From a virus: a stretch of DNA of 64,000 nucleotides. Numbering within the stretch: the first letter of the stretch is position 1; each line of letters begins with the position of its first letter. The stretch spans positions 1-64,000 of the IMG/VR virus record IMGVR_UViG_3300049912_000012. One strand, written 5' to 3'. The notes beneath the pieces were generated by a model. It had not been told where the DNA came from and searched no databases. It was given only the letters and a program-made list of their open reading frames with translations. A program made the position numbers and the translations under genes. Shown here one piece after another: positions 33,907 through 63,296 of this stretch.

Positions 33907-35421
33907 TTAAGTTACCCTACGAGCTATCTTCTTATTAGCTAACTTAGTTACAGCAAGAGATGACGCATCAACCTGGTCCTTATATGTGGAAAACGGAAAA
34001 TAACGTAATTCATTTATATAATTCAGATTCCAACTTCCCTGTAAAAGTATTACATTACCATTATTAACCTGTACTGAATAAGGATCAGCACGATACGTTT
34101 TATCTCCCGATGCATGTTCTGAATCTGCTTTAAACCCTAAAAGATTCCTTATTGTACCTTCTGCCGATTCCTTCCCTGAACTACCAGGTTCTTGTTCTAT
34201 CCATATTTCCACACCTGTACCATCTGTGTCTGCAACCGACCTGATAATCCTTTCTCTCTCTTGACTTTCCCATTGACCCCGCACAACATCTTCAACCAAT
34301 AACCTGTTATTAATCAATTTACTTATCTTAACCCCTGCTGTATATGCACCACCTCCCTGTGTTCCTGCCTTATCCCATGCACGCACAGTATGTAATATCT
34401 CATGTTTTTGTGGAAGTGACGTGGTAATAGTAAATTTATCAACCTTGAACATACCTCCACCTGGGGGTGTAGGATTTTGCCCTATCTGCCCTGCATATCC
34501 ATACTGTCCTAACTTGGATTCAAGGTCTTTAAGAGTCTTCCATGAAATACGCTTGGTATCCAAGAGATCATCAGTATAAAAATCAACCATCTCTTTAGGA
34601 GTAACAAATTCCCTAAAGTTGCGTATCTCACCTGGGAGACAGATATGCCTGACATTTTCTTCTTTCTTATCAAGCCAATGACCTGATGGATCATTCATAT
34701 GAAGCCTTTGCATTATTAAAATAACAGGGGTAATATCTTTATCCCTCTTACGAAGTGGAAGTGTTTGTTCCATGAAATGATTAGCATTCGCCAATTCTAT
34801 ATCTGATGCAGCCTGTGTAGGATTTAACGGGTCATCAACAATAAGTATATCTGCATGAAATCCTGTAACAGTACCGGTAAGAGATGTACTGATCCTGCCT
34901 CCACCCGTTAAAAGACTCCCCCTCCTATGAGTACCACCTGCACCTGTAACCTTCTTAGCAATCTTAAAATTAGACTTGACGTTCTTATCTTCCTTTATAA
35001 TAATGTCAGGGTACATCTCTTGGAATAACTGGCTCTGCAATATATCACGACAATATTCTGCACTTTCCAAGGAAAGTTTATCCGAATAGGACATTGTTAT
35101 GATAAGCATCCAATGCCATCGAGTCCAACACCAGATAGGAAACATGATACTAACAAGGGCCGTTTTTGTGCTTCCTGGTGGTACGTTCAGGATTAAATCA
35201 TAATCCCTGGGTTCCCTACGTGAAACTTTCTCGGCAACTTTTTCAAGTTCTTTACAGAGATATTCTATATGCCAGTTTGGGGAAAACGGTTGTGACGAAT
35301 ATACAGGCCAAAAATATTTAAGGAAGTGGTAGAGGGAGCGGTTGTTTAGTTCCCTCGTAATGAGTAGGGGGTTCTTCAAGAGTTCCTTGACAATTTCAGG
35401 GCTAATTGTCGTCCCCGGCAT
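33907..35421 (-). CDS. terL: Terminase large subunit
   Basis: LNVPPGSTKT Walker A, ILIVDDP Walker B, IMQRLH..D, WDKA, KDQVDA nuclease motifs. Confidence 0.93.
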   Translation of the reverse strand: MPGTTISPEIVKELLKNPLLITRELNNRSLYHFLKYFWPVYSSQPFSPNWHIEYLCKELEKVAEKVSRREPRDYDLILNVPPGSTKTALVSIMFPIWCWTRWHWMLIITMSYSDKLSLESAEYCRDILQSQLFQEMYPDIIIKEDKNVKSNFKIAKKVTGAGGTHRRGSLLTGGGRISTSLTGTVTGFHADILIVDDPLNPTQAASDIELANANHFMEQTLPLRKRDKDITPVILIMQRLHMNDPSGHWLDKKEENVRHICLPGEIRNFREFVTPKEMVDFYTDDLLDTKRISWKTLKDLESKLGQYGYAGQIGQNPTPPGGGMFKVDKFTITTSLPQKHEILHTVRAWDKAGTQGGGAYTAGVKISKLINNRLLVEDVVRGQWESQERERIIRSVADTDGTGVEIWIEQEPGSSGKESAEGTIRNLLGFKADSEHASGDKTYRADPYSVQVNNGNVILLQGSWNLNYINELRYFPFSTYKDQVDASSLAVTKLANKKIARRVT

Positions 35422-35944
35422 CTCCAGGTAGTGATATTAATGGTTCAGGTTCTATATCCGTGACATTCCTTAACTTCTTAGCTTCTTTCTCTAATAATGC
35501 CAAGATGTCAGTAGAGATAGTATCTATGTTGATGTTGATGTTTGCCGTGCTTTCTATACTTATCCTCTGTGTCTCTGACCATCCCTGGTCCCTCGCTTTA
35601 AGTGACATCAACCGCATTGCCGTCCAAGGATCAGGAAGTCTTTGCTTCTTGATAGTAGTTTTCTCCCACTTATGAACAGACCTGTCATAAGTTGCTACCT
35701 CTTCTTCATATGGAAAACCTAATGCAAGTTTAAGAATAGACTGTGTAACACCTGTTAAAATTCCCAAGTTACCATCGTCTATTGCCTTCTTAAATTCTTT
35801 ATGAGTCTTTTTCCATTGACAGTAGGTAGAATAATGAACATCCATTATCTCAGCCTGTTTTTGCTCTGAAAATCCTGCAGACGTAAGCAAATAGGCCATT
35901 TCAATGTATCTATCTGTCCACTTTACTAACCTTGAAGGTAACAT
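35402..35944 (-). CDS. terS: Terminase small subunit
   Basis: N-terminal HTH, W.K.H.EF..AI..G, L.LA.G..YEE; directly upstream of terL. Confidence 0.75.
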   Translation of the reverse strand: MLPSRLVKWTDRYIEMAYLLTSAGFSEQKQAEIMDVHYSTYCQWKKTHKEFKKAIDDGNLGILTGVTQSILKLALGFPYEEEVATYDRSVHKWEKTTIKKQRLPDPWTAMRLMSLKARDQGWSETQRISIESTANININIDTISTDILALLEKEAKKLRNVTDIEPEPLISLPGDAGDDN

Positions 35945-36150: not shown

Positions 36151-36290
36151 TCTACATTTGCTCTTGATTATTGTAGTGGATTACAGATGTATCAAGAAAA
36201 AACTTACAGAATTGCCCTATGTGCTGATGAAAAATCGTCAGTCGAAAGGCTATCGTTTGTATCCACTACAACGTCAGCCATAGGGTTTCT
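36151..36290 (+). ncRNA. Structured RNA leader A (pseudoknot/kissing architecture)
   Basis: TACATTTG promoter-like box; TTGTAGTGGAT (36171-81) complementary to ATCCACTACAA (36261-71) inside hairpin 36214-29/36272-86; GAAA tetraloop. Confidence 0.6.
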
Positions 36291-36512
36291 TCATAGCTTT
36301 TCCCATTGCTTGATTGTATTGAAGCAGAATCCAAAGCGGAGCAGGATATAGAAGTCTGAGAAAGATAAACAAATCCATGCTCCTTCTGTTAATTGAAGAC
36401 ATGGTCGGACAAAAGAAAGATTTAAAACTCAGCCTTTAACGATGAGGACACTTCTTGACCTGAGTGCAGATGCAACACGGAAGAAGAATTGTCCGAATAA
36501 AAGAAATATAAT

Positions 36513-36668
36513 ATGGAAATAATACTTTCACTCATAGCTTTATTTATTTCGGTACTTTTCTACCTCAGTGTTACCCAAACTCTAAAAGATAAAAAGAAAG
36601 AGTTTAAGAGGATAAGTGGTATGGATTATGATGAATACATAAAAAAAGAGAGACTAAATAAAAAATGA
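36513..36668 (+). CDS. 51-aa single-TM protein
   Basis: Hand translation MEIILSLIALFISVLFYLSVTQTLKDKKK...; ATGA overlap with 36665. Confidence 0.55.
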   Translation: MEIILSLIALFISVLFYLSVTQTLKDKKKEFKRISGMDYDEYIKKERLNKK

Positions 36669-36885
36669 GAAGGATAGCAAAAGTTATAAAAGGCAAGAAA
36701 GGTTATTTTATCCAAAGAGATGATGCAAAGATCAACTATGACTACAAGACTAAACAATTCTTATACGAATCAGAATTTATAACTACCGGTAAATTAATAA
36801 AAGAATTAAAGGAACAATTTGATGAAGGTTATCCTATCTCTGCAGACCCTAAAGTACTAAAGTCACTTGAAAAACTATTAGACAA

Positions 36886-37086
36886 ATGAAACATAAAGAT
36901 ACTTTTCTAACTAAAAAACAACTTCTTCACAGATTAGATGATGCTGATTATAGACTTGAATATTTTAAAGAATATTATTCTAAGTTAGAAAGTGATAATA
37001 AAGCATTGCAAAAACAACTATTTAATATGGATAGGAAGTACTATGAATTATTAAATAAAAAAAAGTGGTATCAGTTTTGGATATAA
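36886..37086 (+). CDS. Coiled-coil protein ending KKKWYQFW (paralog of 62190..62399)
   Basis: Direct protein similarity visible in the ORF track. Confidence 0.7.
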   Translation: MKHKDTFLTKKQLLHRLDDADYRLEYFKEYYSKLESDNKALQKQLFNMDRKYYELLNKKKWYQFWI

Positions 37087-39039
37087 ACGTCCTATATAAT
37101 ATAAGGTATAACCAAGTAATTTTAACTTTAAAAATGCTAAGATGGAGCCAAGAGACATAGAAAACCCTATTATTGAAAAAGACTTCAGACACCAGTTAAA
37201 TACTCTCTACGCCTTTTTATACAACCCTATGATACATGAGAGCGTCCCAGGCATTGTAAGCATCCACAGGACAAGGGAAGGGGCTGAGAAAGCCTTGGAG
37301 TGGCACAAGAACGAGGTAAGAGAAGAGTGGAAGTACAGGGGTGCTCCTGAAGAATATCCATTTGACTTTTGCCAATGGTGGGGAATAGAAGAAATACAAA
37401 TACAAGACTAACTATGACAATAGCACTTATAATCATAATAATTCTACTAATAGGGATTATTATTCTTTTTGCCAAATTATTCTCTGACTGTTTTAAATGG
37501 CCATCATGAAAAATAGCTTTGAACAAAAAGTCCTAATTTTCTATCTAATACTGACAGTTATCTCAGTAATAACTGTAATTATAATAATAAATTTAAAGTA
37601 CTTCTGATGAAAGACCTAATCAAAAAAGGCATAAAGACATTAAAAGACAATGGATACAAGCCTAAAGCTATTTGGCAAGATGGAGACAACATCTATATAG
37701 TAACAGACAACATAGACAGAAGTAAATACGCTAAACTAATAAAGAAATTCAAATGAAAGAGAAACTTTATACTGAACAAATATTCTTTAGAAGAACCAAG
37801 GGTGGGAAAATTGAGACAGCGTGGCTAACCTTTAATAGCAAGTGGCTAGCTCAAAACAGAGATGTATTTGCGAGAGCAATAAAACAACATATCGGGGAAG
37901 TATCAACATTATGGGGATAATATTATGAAAGAAAGACAATTTTACATTCAGCATGGATATGTAGGCAATGCTATGTGCTGGTGGAGGAAAGGAGACAGAG
38001 GCTACTCTACCAACCTCTCAGAAGCAGGCAAGTACCCTGAGTCAGTAGCAAGACGACAGGCAGCATGCAGACCTGAAGAAGATACAGCATGGCCTGTAGA
38101 CTACATCAACGGCAACAAGAAAGCCCACAAGAAGGTTGTAGACAGTCAGTACTGCGACTTCTCAGAGATGATATATGTAGCTAAAAAAGAGAAAAAGCTA
38201 TGCAAAGCAGATTATGATATGTCAACTTCAAGAGATTAAGATATGAGAAAGTGTAAACTTTGCGGAGATTTAACAGACACTGTATTCAACATAGACTTTA
38301 AAGCAGTACCTGTTTGTGAAGGCTGCGCTGCTTCCGTATTTCTACAACAAGCTAATTGGTATATAAAAGAATCTATTTCTAAAATTCACAAAACTGTAGA
38401 AAAAGATAATAATAACATCTTTAAACACATAAACGAATGAAAACATTTTTTACATACGAAGAAGATGAAGCATATCGTCAAGGACGAAAAGATGCTGACT
38501 ATGGAAGAACTGATCATTTTAGAACCAGTAGAAGCTTTGCAGAATACGACACACCTGATAAAGCATACTGGATAGGACAGGATGAACGCAAGCACGAGAA
38601 AGATGTTGCTGAGAGACAAAGAGAATATTGGGATGAACAATATGATAGATGGAGGAATGGATAAACAAGCAAGGCATGAATGAAAATGAATTAATGCTCG
38701 GAAATTACTATGCTATCGCAGAAAATGACGGAATTAAATATAAACAAATAACATATCTCATTCCTTCTGCCGAAGAATGGTTTTCAGATGGAGACAATAT
38801 ATCTCGTGCAGCAAAATCAGTTCCATTAGACCAAGTATGGATAAAATTATTAGGATTTAAATGGATAGGAAATCCCAATAAAACAGATAGTCTTGTCATT
38901 ACTCACTTTTCTAAACCAAATATAGAGATAATTTATTCTGACAAATATGGGTATAACCTAAGAGATATTAATGTAAAAATAAAATATGTTCATCAATTGC
39001 AAAACCTTTGGTTTGAACTTACAAAATTCAAATTAACCA

Positions 39040-39063
39040 AGCAATTTTAAAAGTAAAAATGCT
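39040..39063. repeat. 24-bp palindrome AGYAWTTTTA-N4-TAAAAWTRCT (best copy of at least 9)
   Basis: Copies start at 10613, 37115, 39040, 42753, 42978, 43689, 46021, 47644, 63661. Confidence 0.8.
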
Positions 39064-39617
39064 ATGAAATACTGGATAGAACTAACAAAGCCTGAGATAG
39101 AACATTTAAACAGCCTCCTGTCACTAAACGAAAACTACGGATGCTACTACGGCTCTAAGATGCAATATTGGAACAGACACAAGAGACTATGTACTAAGCT
39201 AGACAATATATCTAAAGACCGCTATATGTTCAGATCACCTAAAACAAAATAAGATGAAAAAGATAACATTACCAGAAGACAACCTAAAACAAGACGAATA
39301 TAAATTATACATAAATGCTCCTAGCTACGAAAACCAGAGGGCAAGGATGGAATTTGAAATAAAAAGAAATAAAGAACTATTGAGATTACAAAAACAACGA
39401 AATAATTACCTTTATATATTATTAGTAATTGTAATTGCAATTTTTGTTATACTTCTTATGTCCTGTAATCCTAAAATGTCCAACATAATAATAAGAAAAC
39501 AACTTATATACGACAATATATCTGTATACTACTTCGGAGACTATAAGTTCTTTAGCGACTCAACTCGCTATGAGCCAGGAGATACTGTCAAAGACCTTCA
39601 TGAAATAAGCTACAAAG

Positions 39618-51891: not shown

Positions 51892-53424
51892 ATGAAGAAT
51901 TATTCATCAGGAATCTATATGATTCAATCTTTTTCAAAACCAGAAAGAACTTATATTGGAAGTGCGGTAAATATTCAACAAAGATGGTGGGTACATTTAT
52001 GTAACTTACGCAAGAATAAACATCATTCAAGCAAGTTACAACATCATTATAATAAATATGGAGAAAAAGATTTAAATTTTATTATTTTAATTTGTTGCGG
52101 TAAAGAAGATTTGATTAAAAATGAACAATATTTTTTAGATTCGCATAAAACATATTTTAATACTAACATAATAGCAAGTAGCGCATTAGGAATTAAAAGA
52201 TCACCCGAATTCATTCAAAAACTCAGGAAACCTAAATCCAAGGAACATGCTAGAAAAATGGGAGATACTAAGAAAGGAAAAGATACTTGGAATAAGGGAA
52301 TAAAAAATTGTCATTCGGATGAAACATTAAGTAAAATGCAATATGAAAGAACACCTGAATGGAGAGAACATAGAAGGAAATTAATGACAGGAACGGTAAT
52401 GTCAGTCGAGTCAAGTAAGAAAAAAGGTGAATATATGCTTGAATACTGGACATTAGTAAAAGCGGGTATATTACCAAAACGTAACTATAAAAAAAGAAAA
52501 GACATGAGCAAATCAGCACCAACATTAGAAAATCCCTGCAAAAAGTGGATAGACTTTAAAGCAGACGAAGGTAAATTTTATTACTTTGATAAATCTATTG
52601 GAGAAAAAGGAAAGAATATTGAAGTTCCTACGCCAATCTATTTTTCGGTTTTGGATGAGTTAAGTCTAATTACCGGATTTAATAAGCGACATGACAGTGG
52701 AATCATAAGCAATGAGGTTAGTTCCGTTGTTAAAGAAAAATTAAGAGTGCGAACATTTAAAGGAGGCGAATCAGTTGTTGGATTTTACTCTGATGTAAAA
52801 GATAGCATTATAGCTATGGGTGGTAAATTCACTAAATCAGTGTACGCTCTCTTAATTAAAGATGATAGTTCAACAGAATTTGTAAACTTTAAATTCAAGG
52901 GAGCAGCATTCTCTGCATGGCTTGACAAAGGCTTCAACCCTATGAACTTCATAGTAGGTGTGACAGAATTTGTAGAAGAGAAGAATGGAAACAACACCTA
53001 CCAAGTTCCTGTATTTAAACCTTTCAAGAGTGATCCCAACATAGATGCTGCAGCAGTAGAACAGGACAAGGTTCTTCAGGAATATCTTAAAGTATACAAA
53101 GCTCAGATACCAGAGAAAGAAGTGGAAGTAGCTGCATCGGTAGAGGAGTCCCCACAAATGAAGACTGATCCTTTCCCTGCATCCCCTGCATGGCATGGAG
53201 GTAATAAGTCTAAACTACCCCCGACAAAAGAAGAACTTGTAGAAGAAGCTAAGAAAGCTATGGAAGCAGGAAAGAAAGGAAAGCAATATACTCCAAGTAT
53301 GACCGATCCACAAGAACTAACAAAACTGTCAAGAGGTAAGCAGGAAGAACCATTTCCACAAAGAGGTGAAGATAACTCTCCTGAGTTCGATGATTCTGAT
53401 GAAATTCAGAAATTACCCTTTTGA
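51853..53424 (+). CDS. GIY-YIG endonuclease (start 51892) fused in frame to a putative ssDNA-binding/recombination protein (second start 52504)
   Basis: SGIYMI...YIGSAVN...RW..H, NUMOD3-like repeats; then MSKSAPT... domain with acidic tail ending ...KLPF. Confidence 0.7.
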   Translation: MVCHLPEGFYILPMKNYSSGIYMIQSFSKPERTYIGSAVNIQQRWWVHLCNLRKNKHHSSKLQHHYNKYGEKDLNFIILICCGKEDLIKNEQYFLDSHKTYFNTNIIASSALGIKRSPEFIQKLRKPKSKEHARKMGDTKKGKDTWNKGIKNCHSDETLSKMQYERTPEWREHRRKLMTGTVMSVESSKKKGEYMLEYWTLVKAGILPKRNYKKRKDMSKSAPTLENPCKKWIDFKADEGKFYYFDKSIGEKGKNIEVPTPIYFSVLDELSLITGFNKRHDSGIISNEVSSVVKEKLRVRTFKGGESVVGFYSDVKDSIIAMGGKFTKSVYALLIKDDSSTEFVNFKFKGAAFSAWLDKGFNPMNFIVGVTEFVEEKNGNNTYQVPVFKPFKSDPNIDAAAVEQDKVLQEYLKVYKAQIPEKEVEVAASVEESPQMKTDPFPASPAWHGGNKSKLPPTKEELVEEAKKAMEAGKKGKQYTPSMTDPQELTKLSRGKQEEPFPQRGEDNSPEFDDSDEIQKLPF

Positions 53425-53840
53425 TCATGCAAACAGCATTAGAAACATTAAGTATTCTGCCTGACACAAAAGATCAGGTAGAAATATTCAAGAGTATGCT
53501 CAAAAAAGAGATACTTAGCTGTCCCTATCCTCTTCAGGTACTTGTACATTTAAAGAGATATGAAAAGACCTTTGGAGACTTGCTGAAAGATGATGATCTT
53601 GATACTTGTTATCTTGCATCATTTAAAAACGAGGCTAAAGATAATAAGCTAACTGTGGAAGGAGCAAGCCTTACAAGTCAGGAATTTGGAGGCACATATG
53701 ACTTTTCCCATGATATGGAATGGGTAAAACTTGACAAGCAGATAAAGACTCTTTCAGAGATTAAAAAAGGAAGGGAGAAACAACTTCAAGTAGTAGTTCC
53801 TAAAATAAATGGGAAGCTAAAAATAGCGGTGAAACTATGA
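53421..53840 (+). CDS. Hypothetical protein of the recombination module
   Basis: 139-aa ORF, coupled to neighbours. Confidence 0.55.
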   Translation: MIMQTALETLSILPDTKDQVEIFKSMLKKEILSCPYPLQVLVHLKRYEKTFGDLLKDDDLDTCYLASFKNEAKDNKLTVEGASLTSQEFGGTYDFSHDMEWVKLDKQIKTLSEIKKGREKQLQVVVPKINGKLKIAVKL

Positions 53841-54310
53841 AGAAGATTCAGGCCATTGGATATAAGCGAGAAGATGAACCTTTTCAGATGCCAATGGCTA
53901 ATACTTTTCGTCAACAACTGGATACCTTGCCTCCAGGGAAATACCAGGTAACAGTGGAGAAATATGTCAAGAAAGCTACTCATTCTCAATTCAAATATCT
54001 TTATGGATTGGTTTATAAATTAGCAATGATAGCAGGTAATGATGCCGGATATGAGTTTAAGACAATAGATGAGGTAGATATATTCTTCAGAGGTCTATTT
54101 GCTAATAAGGAAGTCCTAAATCGTGAAACAGGAGAGATAATGCTTCTCCCCTTATCTAAGAGTGAGTTTTTAACTATTGATGAACTTGTGTATTGTGACA
54201 CTATCCGTAATTATGTGAGTGAATATTGGAATACAAACATACCTGATCCTGATCCTCGTTATAAACAAAATAAAGACAATGCTACCAAACCATGTAAAGA
54301 TATATCTTAG
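53837..54310 (+). CDS. NinB-like recombination accessory protein
   Basis: T..Q.KYL.G.VY, V..ETGE, S..EF...Y...I......IPDP. Confidence 0.6.
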   Translation: MKKIQAIGYKREDEPFQMPMANTFRQQLDTLPPGKYQVTVEKYVKKATHSQFKYLYGLVYKLAMIAGNDAGYEFKTIDEVDIFFRGLFANKEVLNRETGEIMLLPLSKSEFLTIDELVYCDTIRNYVSEYWNTNIPDPDPRYKQNKDNATKPCKDIS

Positions 54311-54551
54311 ATATTTTGATATTGGAGAACAAGACATCTGGTATTGTGAAAAGTGCAATCAATCCTTTCATATCAATAGTGGATTAAATATCCATCATAT
54401 TAATGGTAGAGGTAAAGGGAAAGATGTAATCGAAAATCTAATGAGCCTTTGTCAAGAAAAATGCCATAGCCTTGCTCATAGTTCTAAGGAGTATATAAGT
54501 AAACAAGAGTTTCAAGAGATACATGATAAATTCTTAAAACGACATAAATGA
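54219..54551 (+). CDS. HNH endonuclease-domain protein
   Basis: CEKC...IHHI..RG......NLM.LC...CH...H. Confidence 0.75.
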   Translation: MNIGIQTYLILILVINKIKTMLPNHVKIYLRYFDIGEQDIWYCEKCNQSFHINSGLNIHHINGRGKGKDVIENLMSLCQEKCHSLAHSSKEYISKQEFQEIHDKFLKRHK

Positions 54552-55195
54552 TTACAAGAACTCCAAGATTAAAAGTATTAAATCTATACGCTGGATTAGG
54601 AGGTAATCGTAAGTTGTGGGAGAATGTACAAGTAACAGCTATTGAAAATAATGAAAGCATTGCTAAGTTTTATTCCGATCACTTTCCTTATGACGCAATG
54701 ATAATTACAGACGCACATCAATACTTACTCGAACACTATTCAGAATATGACTTTATATGGAGTTCAATAAACTGTCCGTCACATTCAAGAGCTAGATTTT
54801 GGGCAGCAAAGCCAAACAAAAAGATTAAACCTGTATTTCCTGATATGAAACTATATGAAGAGATACTTTTCCTAAAACATTATTTTGACGGTAAATGGAT
54901 AGTTGAAAATGTTGTCCCATTCTATACTCCACTAATCAATCCTACAGTAAAAATAGGGAGGCATTACTTTTGGTCTAATTTCGCTATCAGCCCAGTAAAC
55001 ATAAAAGAAGCTGATATAAACAGGGGAGTAAAAGATGAATGGCAAGAATTACATGGTTTTGACATCACCGGTTATAAGTTCAATTCCAGAAGAGATAAGG
55101 TTTTAAGAAATTGTGTACATCCAAAACTAGGACTGCATATCTTAAATTGTGCATTGAATAAAGAAACAGCAACACAAACAAGACTACTACTATGA
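54548..55195 (+). CDS. DNA cytosine-C5 methyltransferase
   Basis: LNLYAGLGG, WSS.NCP.HS, VENV, RH.FW, LRNCV. Confidence 0.85.
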   Translation: MITRTPRLKVLNLYAGLGGNRKLWENVQVTAIENNESIAKFYSDHFPYDAMIITDAHQYLLEHYSEYDFIWSSINCPSHSRARFWAAKPNKKIKPVFPDMKLYEEILFLKHYFDGKWIVENVVPFYTPLINPTVKIGRHYFWSNFAISPVNIKEADINRGVKDEWQELHGFDITGYKFNSRRDKVLRNCVHPKLGLHILNCALNKETATQTRLLL

Positions 55196-55832
55196 AACAA
55201 TCTGAACTAGACTACAAACAAGAAACAGGACTCGCTGCTAAAATAGTTTATGCAAAATGTCCTGATTGTGGTGCATATATGATGAGTACTGAACTTATGG
55301 AAGAAGGATACATAGAATGGCTTGAAGAAAAGTACGAGCATTACCTAAAATGTCAACAAGCACTATTAGATGCATCTGAAGTCTCAAAACACGATTGGGA
55401 TAATGCAGTAAACGAAATAGGTCAACTACAAGATCAGTTAAGTGATGCAATGGATGAAATTAGACAACTAAGCAGACGATGAAAACATTAAACGAGATAA
55501 ATAAAGAGATAGTAGAAGCTCATGCTATCATGGTAGAGGCAAATAAGCTAAGTACTAAAAAAGCAGAAAGGCTATACAAAAAGATGAACAAGCAGATAAT
55601 ATGGCTTAAACATATAAAACGCTATCTTGAATCTAACCCTAGACCTGAGTTTGTACAAAGTGAACTAGAGACTGTTATAATGAGGATAGGACGCATAGAC
55701 GAGGGATACCTAGTATGGGCAGCAGGAAGAGCAATAACAGCCTACAAGGACCCTAAGAAGGCTTACACTAACGAGATGGGACTGCCCCAGCTAAGAGAAC
55801 AGATGAAAACTCTGAAATATATTTTGAAGTAG
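55192..55832 (+). other. Two hypothetical ORFs (55192..55482 with CPDCG; 55479..55832)
   Basis: ORF track; ATGA coupling. Confidence 0.55.
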
Positions 55833-55870
55833 GTCTTGTTTATTCGGAAATTGTTTCATAATTTTACAGA

Positions 55871-56015
55871 ACCAAATTAAATTGCAACATGGTCTTCAGT
55901 AAATTCTTTACTTTATCAATATCCCCTGCCAAAGGGAATAGAGCCATCGGATGGAGGTTGCACTCCTAGGGTCCGGTGGTTTTTATTTTTGATGGCGGGG
56001 GTTTATATAACCAAT
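55871..56015 (+). ncRNA. Structured RNA leader C
   Basis: TGCAAC (55883-88) complementary to loop GTTGCA of GGAG-loop-CTCC, atop a long G-U-rich stem 55923-51/55972-56001. Confidence 0.6.
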
Positions 56016-56291
56016 ATGAAACTTCCCAAAGGAACTTTACTCCACATGATTAAAAGACAGAAAGGAAAATGCTACTATTGTGGAGATGATTTAATTAAAT
56101 TTGAAATTGACCACATTTTCCCATTTTCAAAGTATAAAAATGGATGTAATTCTAATTTATGTTTAGCATGTCCTGATTGTAATAAAGTTAAAAAAGTTCT
56201 TGAGCCTTGGAATTTTTGGGACTTATGTCTTCGGGAATATCCAGAAAAATTAAAAGACGGAGAATTCTATTACGAAAGAATGAAACTATAA
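55989..56291 (+). CDS. HNH endonuclease (likely start 56016)
   Basis: CYYCG...IDHIFP.SK......NL..AC..CN..K. Confidence 0.85.
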   Translation: MMAGVYITNMKLPKGTLLHMIKRQKGKCYYCGDDLIKFEIDHIFPFSKYKNGCNSNLCLACPDCNKVKKVLEPWNFWDLCLREYPEKLKDGEFYYERMKL

Positions 56292-56986
56292 TGGCTAAAG
56301 ACCCTGCATTCTTATTCTATCCTAATGACTGGTTCGGAGGAACTATAGGGATGACTTTTGAAGAAAAAGGTGCATACATGGATTTATTAATGATGCAATT
56401 TAACAGAGGTCACATGACCGAACATATGATAGGTCAAGTGGTAGGTCAACTTTGGGTCAAGCTTAGGTCAAAGTTCTTAATTGATGAAAATGGTTTGTAT
56501 TACAATGAGCGATTGGAGTATGAAGTAAAAAAACGGCAAGCCTACATTAAATCAAGGGTTAATAACAAAGAAGGGAAAAATCAATACACAAAAGAAGAAG
56601 AAAATAAGATAGGTCATACGACCTCACATATGGAAGATGAAGATGAAGATAAGGATTTAGTTAATTATAAAGGAGTGCTTGATAATTTTCATTTTTATTG
56701 TGACAAGTTATCAAAAGTTGAGAGACTATCTACAGAACGTAAAAAACATATTAATGCTCGTTTTAAAGAATTTGACTTTGATACAATAGTTGAAGTATTT
56801 AAAAAAGTTGGCAAGTCAGATTTTTTATGCGGTAAAAATGATCGGGCATGGAAAGCAAGTTTTGATTGGATATTCAATGAAACTAATTTTTTAAAAATCA
56901 TGGAAGGAAAATATGAAAACAAAGAACAACCTCAATCTATTACTAGAGCATTTATTCCTGAACTAACAAGTGGATCAAAAAGATGA
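56207..56986 (+). CDS. Phage replication initiator (DUF1376/YdaU-like; likely start 56291)
   Basis: MAKDPAFLFYPNDW..GT..MT.EEKGAY.DLL; C-terminal FL.G.N...WKA.FDWI....NF.KI.EG.Y; upstream of dnaB. Confidence 0.8.
   Translation: MEFLGLMSSGISRKIKRRRILLRKNETIMAKDPAFLFYPNDWFGGTIGMTFEEKGAYMDLLMMQFNRGHMTEHMIGQVVGQLWVKLRSKFLIDENGLYYNERLEYEVKKRQAYIKSRVNNKEGKNQYTKEEENKIGHTTSHMEDEDEDKDLVNYKGVLDNFHFYCDKLSKVERLSTERKKHINARFKEFDFDTIVEVFKKVGKSDFLCGKNDRAWKASFDWIFNETNFLKIMEGKYENKEQPQSITRAFIPELTSGSKR
56407..56632 (+). repeat. Iteron-like repeats inside the initiator gene (candidate origin)
   Basis: RGGTCAA at 56431, 56443, 56454, 56465; related 22-mers at 56407 and 56611. Confidence 0.5.
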
Positions 56987-61150: not shown

Positions 61151-62209
61151 ATGATACGAGAAATATCATTGTCAAACTTTCAATCTCATAAAGATAGTCA
61201 TCTTGAATTTTCGGATGGTGTAAATGTTATTTTAGGTGCGTCAGACAGTGGTAAGACAGCAATAATAAGAGCCTTGAGATGGGTAGCGACAAACAAACCA
61301 AGCGGTGATGCTTTTAGAAGCTATTGGGGAGGAAAGACTTCTGTTGAACTCTTTACCGACGATGCTCATATTGTCCGTAGCAGGGATAAGGACAATGAAT
61401 ATGTCTTAGGCGATACGCACTTCAAAGCATTTTCTACTGAGACACCTAAAGAGATAGTTGACGCTCTGAGACTCGATAGTGTGAATATGCAGGCACAGCT
61501 CGATAGTCCATTTCTTCTGAGCGAGACCCCAGGAGATGTAGCTGCTCACTGGAACAAGATAGCAAAATTAGAGGCAATAGATAAAGGGACTACTAATATC
61601 AACTCAGCTATCAGGGAGCTTACTTCGGATATAAAGTACAAGTCTGAGCAGGAAACAAAGTTAATTAGTGACATAGCTACATATCCAGATATGGAGATAT
61701 ATGAATATGATGTAGAAGTCCTTGAACAGATGGAGAAGGAGAAGGCTGTCTTAGCTAACTCAGCAAACAAACTGCATGCCGTATGTTCTGCTTATAGACT
61801 TACAAATGCTAATCTTAAAGAGAAGTCTGAGATATTGAAGTTAGAACATCCACTTAACAACATCCTTGATTTAATAGATCAGAAGAAGCATACAGAAGCG
61901 AATTTTCAAAAGCTTAATGGAATATTGCTTTTAATACATCATAACGAATGTAAAATTGCAGATATTGATAAGACTTTGACTCTTGAACAACCTGTTTCGG
62001 AATTGATAGAGATGTACAAGGAACGAGATTTGGCAGAGAATAGGGTTGTCTTGCTTTCTGCGACACTTTCTAATGTAAAAGGCATCCAAGACAGGATTGA
62101 AAAGGGAAGGGCTTATATCGCTTCGCAAGAGGCTTTATTTACAAAAGAGATGGGGAGTCAATGTATTCTTTGTGGATCAAAATTAAAACATGAACACAAT
62201 GAAGCATAA
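61151..62209 (+). CDS. SbcC/Rad50-like ATPase, N-terminal half
   Basis: NFQSH, GASDSGKT Walker A, Q-loop QLD, coiled coil, ends at CILCG zinc hook; no Walker B. Confidence 0.82.
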   Translation: MIREISLSNFQSHKDSHLEFSDGVNVILGASDSGKTAIIRALRWVATNKPSGDAFRSYWGGKTSVELFTDDAHIVRSRDKDNEYVLGDTHFKAFSTETPKEIVDALRLDSVNMQAQLDSPFLLSETPGDVAAHWNKIAKLEAIDKGTTNINSAIRELTSDIKYKSEQETKLISDIATYPDMEIYEYDVEVLEQMEKEKAVLANSANKLHAVCSAYRLTNANLKEKSEILKLEHPLNNILDLIDQKKHTEANFQKLNGILLLIHHNECKIADIDKTLTLEQPVSELIEMYKERDLAENRVVLLSATLSNVKGIQDRIEKGRAYIASQEALFTKEMGSQCILCGSKLKHEHNEA

Positions 62210-62399
62210 AGATACTTATATAACAAAAAGGCAACTACAACACAGATTAGATGATGCTGAATATATGATAGATTATTTAAAACGATATTATAAAAATCTA
62301 GAAAATGATAATAAGATACTGTCGCAACAATTAACTAATTGGGATAGAAAATATTGTGAATTGTTAAATAAAAAGAAATGGTATCAATTCTGGAGATAA
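62190..62399 (+). CDS. Coiled-coil protein ending KKKWYQFWR (paralog of 36886..37086)
   Basis: Protein similarity. Confidence 0.7.
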   Translation: MNTMKHKDTYITKRQLQHRLDDAEYMIDYLKRYYKNLENDNKILSQQLTNWDRKYCELLNKKKWYQFWR

Positions 62400-63296
62400 A
62401 TGGAAAGAGGTAAAGTAAATAAACCCGATCTTTTGCTTACAGGTGACTGGCATCTTCGTGAAGATACACCTACCTGCTTTACTGGCGATTTTCAAAAGGA
62501 ACAGTGGGATGCTGTGCAGTTTATTTCCGAGTTACAAGAGAAGTACGATATTCCTGTTATTTGTTCAGGTGATTTATTCCATCATTGGAAACCGTCTCCT
62601 TGGTTGTTATCCCAAACTTTATGGTATCTTCCTAATAAATTCTGTACTATTTATGGACAACATGATCTCCCGCAACACAACTGGGACCTACGAGAGAAAA
62701 GTGGAATACATACTTTACAGATGGCAGGTAAATTATACGTACTGCCTGGGTGTCATTATGGAGAAACACCAGAAGATATGTTTGAAAATCATCTATCCAC
62801 TCAAAGTATAATGAATTTCAATACAGATGAAGCTACTCTTGTATGGCATCATCTTACTTACATTACTGAGCCATACCCAGGAGCGACAGGAGGCAATGCT
62901 TATGATATATTGAACAAGTATAAGCAGTTTAAGCTTATCGTAACTGGAGATAATCATTGCTCGTTTACTATTGAAAAAGATGGCAGGAGATTAGTAAATA
63001 CAGGTAATCTTACAAGACAAACAGCAGCACAGATAGATTTTAAACCTTGTGTATGGCTATGGTATGCTGAGAGCAATACAGTAGAGCAAGTATTCCTGCC
63101 TATCGAAGAGGGAGTTGTCAGCAGAGAACATTTGCAGGTTAAAGAAGAAAGGAATGAACGAATTGATGCTTTTATCTCAAAACTTTCGGGAGATTATAAG
63201 ACAGAGTTGTCTTTTGAAGCAAATTTAGAATCTTTCTTTCAAGCTAATGAAGTTAAAGAATCAGTGAGGCGAATTGTATACAAAGCAATCGAATGA
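62400..63296 (+). CDS. SbcD/Mre11-like metallophosphoesterase nuclease
   Basis: GDWH, GDLF, GQHD, GDNH, NTGN..R. Confidence 0.88.
   Translation: MERGKVNKPDLLLTGDWHLREDTPTCFTGDFQKEQWDAVQFISELQEKYDIPVICSGDLFHHWKPSPWLLSQTLWYLPNKFCTIYGQHDLPQHNWDLREKSGIHTLQMAGKLYVLPGCHYGETPEDMFENHLSTQSIMNFNTDEATLVWHHLTYITEPYPGATGGNAYDILNKYKQFKLIVTGDNHCSFTIEKDGRRLVNTGNLTRQTAAQIDFKPCVWLWYAESNTVEQVFLPIEEGVVSREHLQVKEERNERIDAFISKLSGDYKTELSFEANLESFFQANEVKESVRRIVYKAIE

Follow-up and report, generated by a model that had tools for sequence, protein, structure and literature searches.

The stretch of DNA analysed here, which we call the window, comprises the first 64 kb of the 78.9-kb IMG/VR virus record IMGVR_UViG_3300049912_000012, a phage genome whose DNA originates from freshwater sediment metagenomes, and it contains three regions, leaders A, B and C, which are cis-acting leader RNAs of one class and with which the early, the recombination and the replication operon begin. 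The minus strand carries the late genes up to terS (35402–35944) and terL, and the plus strand, from 36513, the early and DNA-metabolism genes. The leaders carry boxes of the type TAnnTTTG, which we take to be the -7 promoter element of the Bacteroidota, and because of these boxes the host is probably a member of the Bacteroidota; the phage belongs to a small clade of uncultured phages, the nearest cultured relatives by TerL being Cellulophaga phages, at 37% identity. In the Bacteroidota promoters are unusual and initiation led by a Shine-Dalgarno sequence is largely absent; in the phage this sequence is rare as well, most of the genes being without one. Little is known of gene regulation in this phylum or in its phages, and descriptions of RNA-based control are few.

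All the leaders share one plan. A few bases after a -7 box, whose position is conserved in the homologs, the leader begins with a tag, that is, its first 6–16 nucleotides (nt), ending 0–6 nt before an ATG in every case; this ATG opens an upstream open reading frame (uORF), and 54–78 nt after it, in a long hairpin, lies an anti-tag complementary to the tag. The hairpins stop 10–17 nt upstream of the AUG of the first gene. In the window the parts are the following.

36153–36160, plus strand: -7 box of leader A, TACATTTG, of the form TAnnTTTG, as read from the sequence.
36171–36181, plus strand: tag of leader A, TTGTAGTGGAT, 5 nt before the uORF AUG.
36187–36351, plus strand: uORF of leader A, 54 codons, running through hairpin A into the structured element E that follows it.
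36214–36286, plus strand: hairpin A, closed by CCCTATG/CATAGGG, with the anti-tag inside.
51764–51771, plus strand: -7 box of leader B, TATCTTGC, with one mismatch to TAnnTTTG, aligned with a perfect TATCTTTG in the homolog of genome G002.
51776–51791, plus strand: tag of leader B, GCATACTAATTACATC, abutting the uORF AUG at 51792.
51792–52004, plus strand: uORF of leader B, 70 codons, crossing the hairpin and entering the GIY-YIG gene out of frame.
51817–51876, plus strand: hairpin B, in which CCCC (51817–20) pairs with GGGG (51873–76) and GGTAGATG (51824–31) with CATCTACC (51862–69).
55859–55866, plus strand: -7 box of leader C, TAATTTTA, with one mismatch, aligned with a perfect TATCTTTG in the homolog of genome G001.
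55883–55888, plus strand: tag of leader C, TGCAAC, abutting the uORF AUG at 55889.
55889–55969, plus strand: uORF of leader C, 26 codons, ending at a TAG within the hairpin.
55923–56001, plus strand: hairpin C, about 30 base pairs (bp) with internal loops, the apical loop being the anti-tag, followed by TTTATATAA.

The original prediction, made from the letters of the window without database searches, had described three leaders built of tag, hairpin and anti-tag at these positions, and all of them are present. The pairings are also those that it gave: 11 perfect bp between the tag of A and its anti-tag ATCCACTACAA (36261–36271), 16 bp including two G-U in B with GGTGTAATTGGTATGC (51846–51861), and 6 bp in C with the 6-nt apical loop GTTGCA (55957–55962). 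The GNRA tetraloop expected just 5′ of the anti-tag in A and B was found as GAAA (36245–36248, in the inner hairpin of A) and as GCAA, respectively; the promoter-like boxes exist too, although they are better read as -7 boxes of the Bacteroidota type. Hairpin A is made of a helix P1 (36215–21/36279–85) and a helix P2, in which CTGATG (36224–29) pairs with CGTCAG (36272–77), and hairpin B is directly followed on its 3′ side by TTTTATATATT (51877–51887).

The evidence that these pairings matter comes from a set of relatives formed by four near-complete IMG/VR genomes (G001–G004) and some fragments, which were recruited via loci carrying an SSB-like gene and by DNA-pattern scans, and in which local blastn then matched all three leaders. 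Tag and anti-tag pairs of different sequence recur in 12 leaders of five genomes, with empirical p values of 0.0002–0.07 for the complementarity in 10 of the 12, and two more examples exist besides these. Leader A alone is represented by seven diverged copies, each with its own tag and a matching anti-tag; those of the homologous copies are TTACATGGG/CCCATGTAA, TTACATGGAG/CTCCATGTAA, GTTTTGGGA/TCCCAAAAC, GGTACAAT/ATTGTACC and TTACTGAGGA/TCCTCAGTAA, and the boxes of its homologs read TATATTTG, TACATTTG and TAAATTTG. Within the window the tag complementarity reaches p values of ~0.013 (A), 0.003 (B) and 0.42 (C) against shuffled upstream sequence, and of 0.004, 0.0002 and 0.42 against all the ATGs of the five genomes, so that the tag of C, being at chance level alone, becomes convincing only through covariation in its homolog. 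Among the tags of A, B and C there is no cross-complementarity, each leader having one private tag and one anti-tag. Three further leaders of the same design and of unrelated sequence, which are among the strongest structure outliers of G002–G004, precede a methyltransferase-like gene and two replication modules; their tags are the following.

Genome G004: tag GCGTAAC, anti-tag GTTACGC.
Genome G003: tag GATGCTAC, anti-tag GTAGCATC.
Genome G002: tag AAAGAGTCAC, anti-tag GTGACTCTTT.

Base changes in the homologs follow the pairing. The homolog of leader B in G002 is 72–84% identical and keeps 28 of 28 pairs with seven compensatory double changes, which are distributed between the tag helix (16/16 pairs kept, four compensatory, both G-U at the same positions) and the lower stem (12/12 pairs, three compensatory), and when the partners are slid by 1–3 columns as a control, 29–48% of the cells are paired; the tetraloop there is UUCG in place of GCAA. 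In the G001 homolog of leader C, 36 of 36 pairs are kept with six compensatory changes: the stems retain 30/30 pairs (three compensatory and four one-sided changes, with several G-U on the plus strand), and the helix between tag and loop passes from TGCAAC/GTTGCA to AGTGAC/GTCACT, with three compensatory changes in its six pairs. For hairpin A, the five sequences aligned give 98.8% of paired cells and five compensatory pairs, a result equalled by none of 500 shuffles. In B and C the crossing helices covary each on their own, as in an H-type pseudoknot or a kissing of loop and tail. The C-like leaders could not be aligned reliably five ways, hence each is reported singly, and model R2, the covariance model of leader C (R3 is that of leader B), brought to light no additional member among 45 related records.

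The G-U pairs of B and C are kept on the plus strand only, and since a G-U on this strand is a C-A mismatch on the other, they support selection at the RNA level and not a DNA palindrome. Comparison of the genomes shows that the pairings are under RNA-level selection, as had been argued in the original prediction from the G-U pairs and the differing tags, that the AUG and its open frame are conserved, and that the leaders stand at the starts of operons. Rfam (release 15, at gathering thresholds) gave no match in the window nor in ~100 kb of the four related genomes, and at E values up to 10 only noise appeared around A, B and C. The two checks that could have refuted the core of the prediction, a match in Rfam and the covariation of homologous leaders, clear in hairpins and tag helices alike, thus came out in its favour.

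The leaders also stand out by their structure. Among ~3150 windows of 100 nt on the plus strand, corrected for guanine-cytosine (GC) content, C ranks first, A fifth and B seventh, with folding z scores against shuffles of -3.9, -2.9 and -1.6, respectively; hairpin C is the most structured window of the genome. The stems, of 60–80 nt, are far longer than those of ordinary terminators in the same genomes, short hairpin-plus-U terminators of the usual kind being present in the relatives as well. GC-rich closing stems are conserved with U-rich tracts directly on their 3′ side, the quality of which ranges from good (UUUUUUC, UGUUUUUU, UUUUAUAUAUU) to weak (UUUAUAUAA, CUACUUUUU). The T's that the original prediction placed after the hairpins are found in B and C, but those after A are looped out at the end of another stem, which is conserved too. 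A common element GGGG(G)TTT(T)ATATA..ACCAAT, also predicted, does lie just before the ATGs at 51892 (B) and 56016 (C), its sole sites in the window at 0–1 mismatch, but its ACCAAT part is not conserved in the homologous leaders. Sequences like TTAACCAAA recur just before the start codons of many genes (e.g. 32422, 44224, 46722, 48932), so the ACCAAT before the genes of B and C fits that genome-wide context and is not specific to the leaders.

Leaders A and B can adopt two folds. For B, the fold with the full hairpin (-28.1 kcal/mol) and the fold with the tag helix (-27.5 kcal/mol) are 0.6 kcal/mol apart. In A, the 5′ arm CTGATG has two conserved partners, the distal CGTCAG of P2 and a proximal CGTCAG (36237–42), the GGG of the 3′ arm is able to pair with an upstream or a downstream CCC, and the fold of minimum free energy from the presumed transcript start is the one with the tag helix; because of these alternative partners and of this minimum, leader A looks like a two-state domain.

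As to the distribution of the leaders, a search of a public phage collection by megablast and blastn gave no match, and among relatives found via the DnaB, TerL and GIY-YIG proteins no homolog of the leaders appeared at DNA level, these relatives being too distant or the elements being absent from them. The regions upstream of terS in the TerL relatives were divergent and no common fold was found there, and neither hairpin C nor the HNH gene is present in the DnaB relatives that are closest, at 77% identity. Viral contigs scanned for the motif shared by B and C matched only in unrelated coding regions, a pattern scan with GGTCGGACA..AACTCAGCC gave mostly chance matches, and generic scans for sigma-70 promoters and terminators were uninformative. 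In three other sediment runs the contigs span no more than parts of the region; a 582-nt sediment contig of run X4 carries a variant of leader B (window 51792–51883) with 11 differences in 92 nt, in another flanking context.

The second conserved property of the leaders is that their hairpins are crossed by a reading frame. The uORFs are 26–71 codons long against a null median of 13, with a combined p of ~5e-5, which is only rough because the homologs are not independent, and in 11 of the 12 leaders they span the entire hairpin and the U-tract, as in pyrBI, leader C of the window being the exception. In five homologous copies of the A family the frame is open for 54–71 codons. The uORFs of several homologs terminate at or over the start of the next gene, through TAATG in the B homolog of G002 (33 codons), TGAATG in G004 and TAA-T-ATG in the C homolog of G001, where the frame, of 40 codons, crosses the whole hairpin up to the start of the replication gene. 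The differences between homologs fall 10/12/9 (B) and 14/18/15 on the three codon positions, that is, codon periodicity is absent, and in the A family the phase of the uORF shifts relative to the conserved nucleotides; the peptide is thus not conserved, and if anything is selected it would be the act of translation. Inspection of the leader peptides revealed no shared or repeated run of residues and no run of regulatory codons. The possibility that the TAG in the uORF of C is read through by an amber suppressor was rejected, as the whole genome contains no tRNA gene. The conserved AUG abutting the tags, together with the frame that crosses the hairpin, had played no part in the original prediction and is, we think, the key to the mechanism.

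Leader A is at the same time the 5′ domain of a larger conserved non-coding structured block of ~350 nt, the rest of which is element E, followed by the first gene of the early arm.

36279–36505, plus strand: element E, ~230 nt, overlapping and following hairpin A, a conserved multi-stem RNA.
36513–36668, plus strand: first gene of the early arm, 51 amino acids, from the list of open reading frames, with no family match in PHROG.

E comprises a stem of GGG with CCC, a hairpin whose loop reads GATTRTATC, and, as its 3′ domain (36362–36501), a part that contains the long-range stem CGGACA/TGTCCG. Eight copies were found by blastn, and 13 on eight viral contigs by covariance model R1, in which the 3′ 150 nt are modelled, with up to three per genome; of its 24 pairs, 14 show compensatory changes, 98.4% of the cells are paired, and none of 500 shuffles equals this. 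A block of stops in all frames, considered as a further feature of E, was not above chance.

In the window, leaders B and C are followed by genes for endonucleases, which the original prediction took to be the starts of the recombination and replication operons.

51892–53424, plus strand: GIY-YIG endonuclease open reading frame fused in frame, with no stop between, to an SSB-like gene that starts at 52504 (PHROG matches).
56016–56291, plus strand: HNH endonuclease gene (PHROG), exactly between leader C and the start of the DnaD-like gene (56288–56986), which it overlaps by TAATG.

The placement at operons holds in the relatives, where homologous leaders precede SSB/recombination and replication modules, but the endonucleases are, judging from the compared genomes, secondary insertions behind pre-existing leaders and not part of the design, because homologous leaders occur without such genes. 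The C-terminal 306 residues of the fused product are SSB-like and end in an acidic ..LPF tail. This tail recurs in stand-alone homologs, more than 100 in number, which start at the residue encoded at 52504; the GIY-YIG domain is thus an in-frame insertion ahead of the SSB-like gene, and one protein (P0002, 81% identical) has the same fusion. In G001 the HNH gene is missing and leader C is followed at once by a DnaD-like replication gene, and relatives L002, L103 and L105, also without the HNH gene, keep a similar short leader (..GTTTATTTTCCAATTATG), the DnaD-like gene of L002 beginning directly after its own. Homing endonuclease genes lie directly behind leaders in four cases (B and C of the window, B of G002, and an 89-amino-acid fragment behind E in G002), and it would appear that such genes settle preferentially at this point. 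Separately, at 2410–3290 of L002 a 266-amino-acid open reading frame lies between the arms of an 11-bp inverted repeat (ACGTCCCTCAA / TTGAGGGACGT), and TTTTGAGG occurs on either side of it; this gives the impression of a gene that has entered a terminator hairpin ahead of the DnaD-like gene.

The window has some other features. A 203-nt duplication of 77% identity (36885–37087 and 62198–62400) involves two small paralogous genes of 66 and 69 amino acids. The sequence AAGCAATTTTAA..TTAAAAA..CTAAA is repeated just upstream of small early genes (37105, 39030, 42977, 43688, 46020) and may be a promoter specific to the phage or some other signal. At 40360–40630 lies a gene-free, very AT-rich region with several perfect palindromes, e.g. 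TTAAGTGTA..TACACTTAA and AATAAGTGT..ACACTTATT, which could be an origin or a cluster of operators and differs in type from leaders A, B and C.

What would such an arrangement do? Intrinsic terminators are suppressed by a ribosome that closely trails the RNA polymerase; where a terminator lies in the initial ~100 bp of a coding region, it acts by default, since the first ribosome has not yet caught up, and the pyrBI terminator lies inside a leader-peptide gene of 135 bp (PMC4824070, PMC5021804). On this model the leaders may be pyrBI-like, translation-coupled attenuators in which the tag acts as a lock on the start of the uORF, a tentative reading, the best of those considered, to which we give somewhat less than an even chance. 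The hairpin and its U-tract would be an intrinsic terminator within the first ~100 nt of the uORF, at which the polymerase would stop by default, and a ribosome loading early on the uORF AUG and following close behind the polymerase would block the hairpin and allow read-through, after which stop-start coupling would hand the ribosome to the first gene. The lock would be set when the newly transcribed anti-tag captures the tag and so closes the initiation region of the uORF; the decision would in this way be limited to a short kinetic window, and terminated leaders would stay untranslated. For leaders A and B the fold with the tag helix and that with the full hairpin would be alternatives, drawing on the same bases and close in energy, and in C-type leaders the tag, pairing with the apical loop, need not compete with the hairpin. 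The original prediction had spoken of an attenuation or translation switch: its core architecture and the selection on it are supported, but the switching action itself we infer, including that the hairpin terminates, that the ribosome is required and in which direction the switch works.

Several observations weigh against such an attenuator. (i) The U's after hairpin A, being in the loop of a further stem and not a free U-tract, mean that A may not terminate at all, and the U-tracts of C (GGGGG-UUUAUAUAA) and of its homolog (GGGGC-UACUUUUU) are weak. (ii) The uORF of C stops at its TAG before the 3′ arm, and that of B enters the GIY-YIG gene out of frame, so the clean stop-start coupling seen in the relatives is not seen in the window. 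(iii) The covariation of B and that of C come from one homolog each (G002 and G001, respectively), and the sequence is consistent with a tag helix and a hairpin that coexist as a pseudoknot as well as with two that exclude each other. (iv) And finally, the host is itself deduced, so that the behaviour of its RNA polymerase and ribosomes presumed here is deduced with it.

Much of the same evidence would fit a control of translation only, in which the hairpin would be a structure of the mRNA that translation of the uORF, in a host that does not rely on Shine-Dalgarno pairing, unfolds, with reinitiation at the first gene, and the tag helix would set the frequency of uORF translation, by the logic of repY/repZ or mok/hok. 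Every tag abuts the AUG of a uORF, few of the phage genes have a Shine-Dalgarno sequence, the frames of the homologs overlap the first gene by stop and start, the U-tracts of C and its homolog are weak, and reinitiation after leader genes has been proposed to raise translation (PMC4833913). However, the hairpins end 10–17 nt before the first AUG, so that the start region is not covered by them, the succession of GC-rich closing stem and U-rich tract is conserved and matches that of the ordinary terminators in these genomes, and the uORFs of B and C in the window are uncoupled from the next gene, all of which makes this explanation rather unlikely in our opinion. A fold recognized by a phage or host factor, or one that acts on the polymerase in the manner of HK022 put, would serve processive antitermination or the timing of operons and would leave the uORF incidental; each of the successive operons begins with its leader, a short way past the promoter, their GNRA or UUCG tetraloops are conserved, and element E is large, multi-stem and present in up to three copies per genome, a placement that can be likened to that of nut or put sites. 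But the tags and loops differ from leader to leader, hence there is no common recognition sequence, no antiterminator gene was identified, and the conserved AUG with a long open frame in every leader would be left unexplained; we regard this alternative as improbable.

It is also quite improbable that the leaders are stand-alone small RNAs (~110–135 nt), acting in trans or as inert by-products, or stability elements whose 5′ tag is tucked into the hairpin against RNases. The combination of promoter, compact fold and terminator is the anatomy of a small RNA gene, the tag begins at about the expected start of transcription, a few nt after the -7 box, and attenuator-derived RNAs are reported to be able to act in trans (PMC6614838); against this, the next gene comes 10–17 nt after the hairpin without a promoter of its own and must therefore be transcribed through the element, the AUG and its frame would again be unexplained, and no complementary target was seen, although none was looked for. 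An early idea was that hairpins B and C limit the expression of homing endonucleases, as T4-type hairpins do, and it was dropped when homologs without endonucleases were found. For it speak the GIY-YIG and HNH genes that B and C directly precede, and a relative (L011) in which a plain terminator precedes the start of the GIY-YIG gene by 13 nt; but the element does not travel with the endonuclease gene, leader C of G001 heads a replication gene without one, the same architecture heads methyltransferase, SSB-like and primosome-like genes that lack one, and the SSB-like and DnaD-like relatives show the endonucleases to be insertions. The tag of C, at chance level alone, would allow fortuitous pairings or DNA-level palindromes such as operators, yet neither chance nor a protein-binding palindrome is compatible with the compensatory changes and the strand-specific G-U pairs, and this whole group of explanations has hardly any probability left.

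The leaders might belong to a modular, bar-coded system, in which a private tag pair at each early or middle operon would be a kinetic checkpoint of ribosome loading that gates transcription and translation, and element E, as a new class of large structured RNA (a sensor of a ligand or protein, or a modifier of the polymerase), would set the early programme of Bacteroidota phages; this is a speculation that we hold to be doubtful. The device has arisen anew at several operons, each time with another sequence, and compensatory evolution has maintained it, which would suggest a general way for phages to tie the transcription of replication and recombination genes to the translational state of the host, or to time it. 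In addition, these short RNAs (110–140 nt) could be used to study the coupling of transcription and translation in the Bacteroidota, and the uncatalogued RNAs of phages are joined by a larger structured one (E) and by three models of leaders.

The type of control that is proposed, a leader open reading frame combined with a terminator, is known, whereas the tag lock, the leader family and element E are uncatalogued. The closest likeness is to pyrBI (pyrL) of E. coli, where an intrinsic terminator lies within a short leader frame near the promoter, a trailing ribosome suppresses it and the peptide is irrelevant (PMC4824070), as would be the case here. In pyrBI, however, no helix links the 5′ end to the top of the hairpin, whereas in the phage leaders a tag would lock their own initiation region; an attenuator of the pyrBI type has NTP-sensitive (in pyrBI, UTP-sensitive) pause sites upstream of the terminator at which the ribosome can catch up, and the phage leaders have A/U-rich linkers between AUG and hairpin; and the phage host is Bacteroidota-like, without Shine-Dalgarno sequences, with several leaders per genome that each bear a private tag. 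The attenuators of amino acid operons (trp, his, pheA) are built in the order promoter, leader open reading frame, alternative folds and terminator with its U-tract, which the leaders may follow, A and B having two folds of similar energy, but the phage leader peptides share no run of regulatory codons, their frame continues through the putative terminator, where that of the amino acid operons stops more than 20 nt short of it, and the competing segment is upstream of the AUG.

The original prediction had drawn its analogies from IncI rep pseudoknots and the RNA-based control of P4, and these stand as analogies only, as the defining features of those systems are absent here. The repY/repZ control belongs to IncI-alpha and IncB plasmids, and in IncI an upstream hairpin pairs through its loop beside the ribosome-binding site of the main gene and activates its translation, an antisense RNA competing for the loop; the stop-start coupling of a leader frame to the main gene and the long-range pairing through a hairpin loop are common to both, but in the phage a 5′ tail at the start of the uORF finds its partner at the top of a hairpin that lies downstream and resembles a terminator, and there is no sign of an antisense RNA. 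In hok/mok, a toxin-antitoxin system of plasmid R1, the 5′ end pairs with the 3′ end of the mRNA (tac-fbi) until 3′ processing opens it; as in the phage leaders, the extreme 5′ end meets a distant segment, and an overlapping leader frame is needed for the main gene, as may hold for the leaders, although the partner is the 3′ end of the mRNA, there is no terminator, and it is not the leader of an operon. The CI RNA of P4, lambda nut and HK022 put are phage leader RNAs just past early promoters at which a decision on termination is based on RNA structure or RNA-RNA pairing, as is proposed for the leaders described here. P4, however, uses one processed RNA with two complementary sites (seqA, seqC), shared in trans, and nut and put are conserved recognition sequences, whereas each of the phage leaders has its own tag and its own translated frame.

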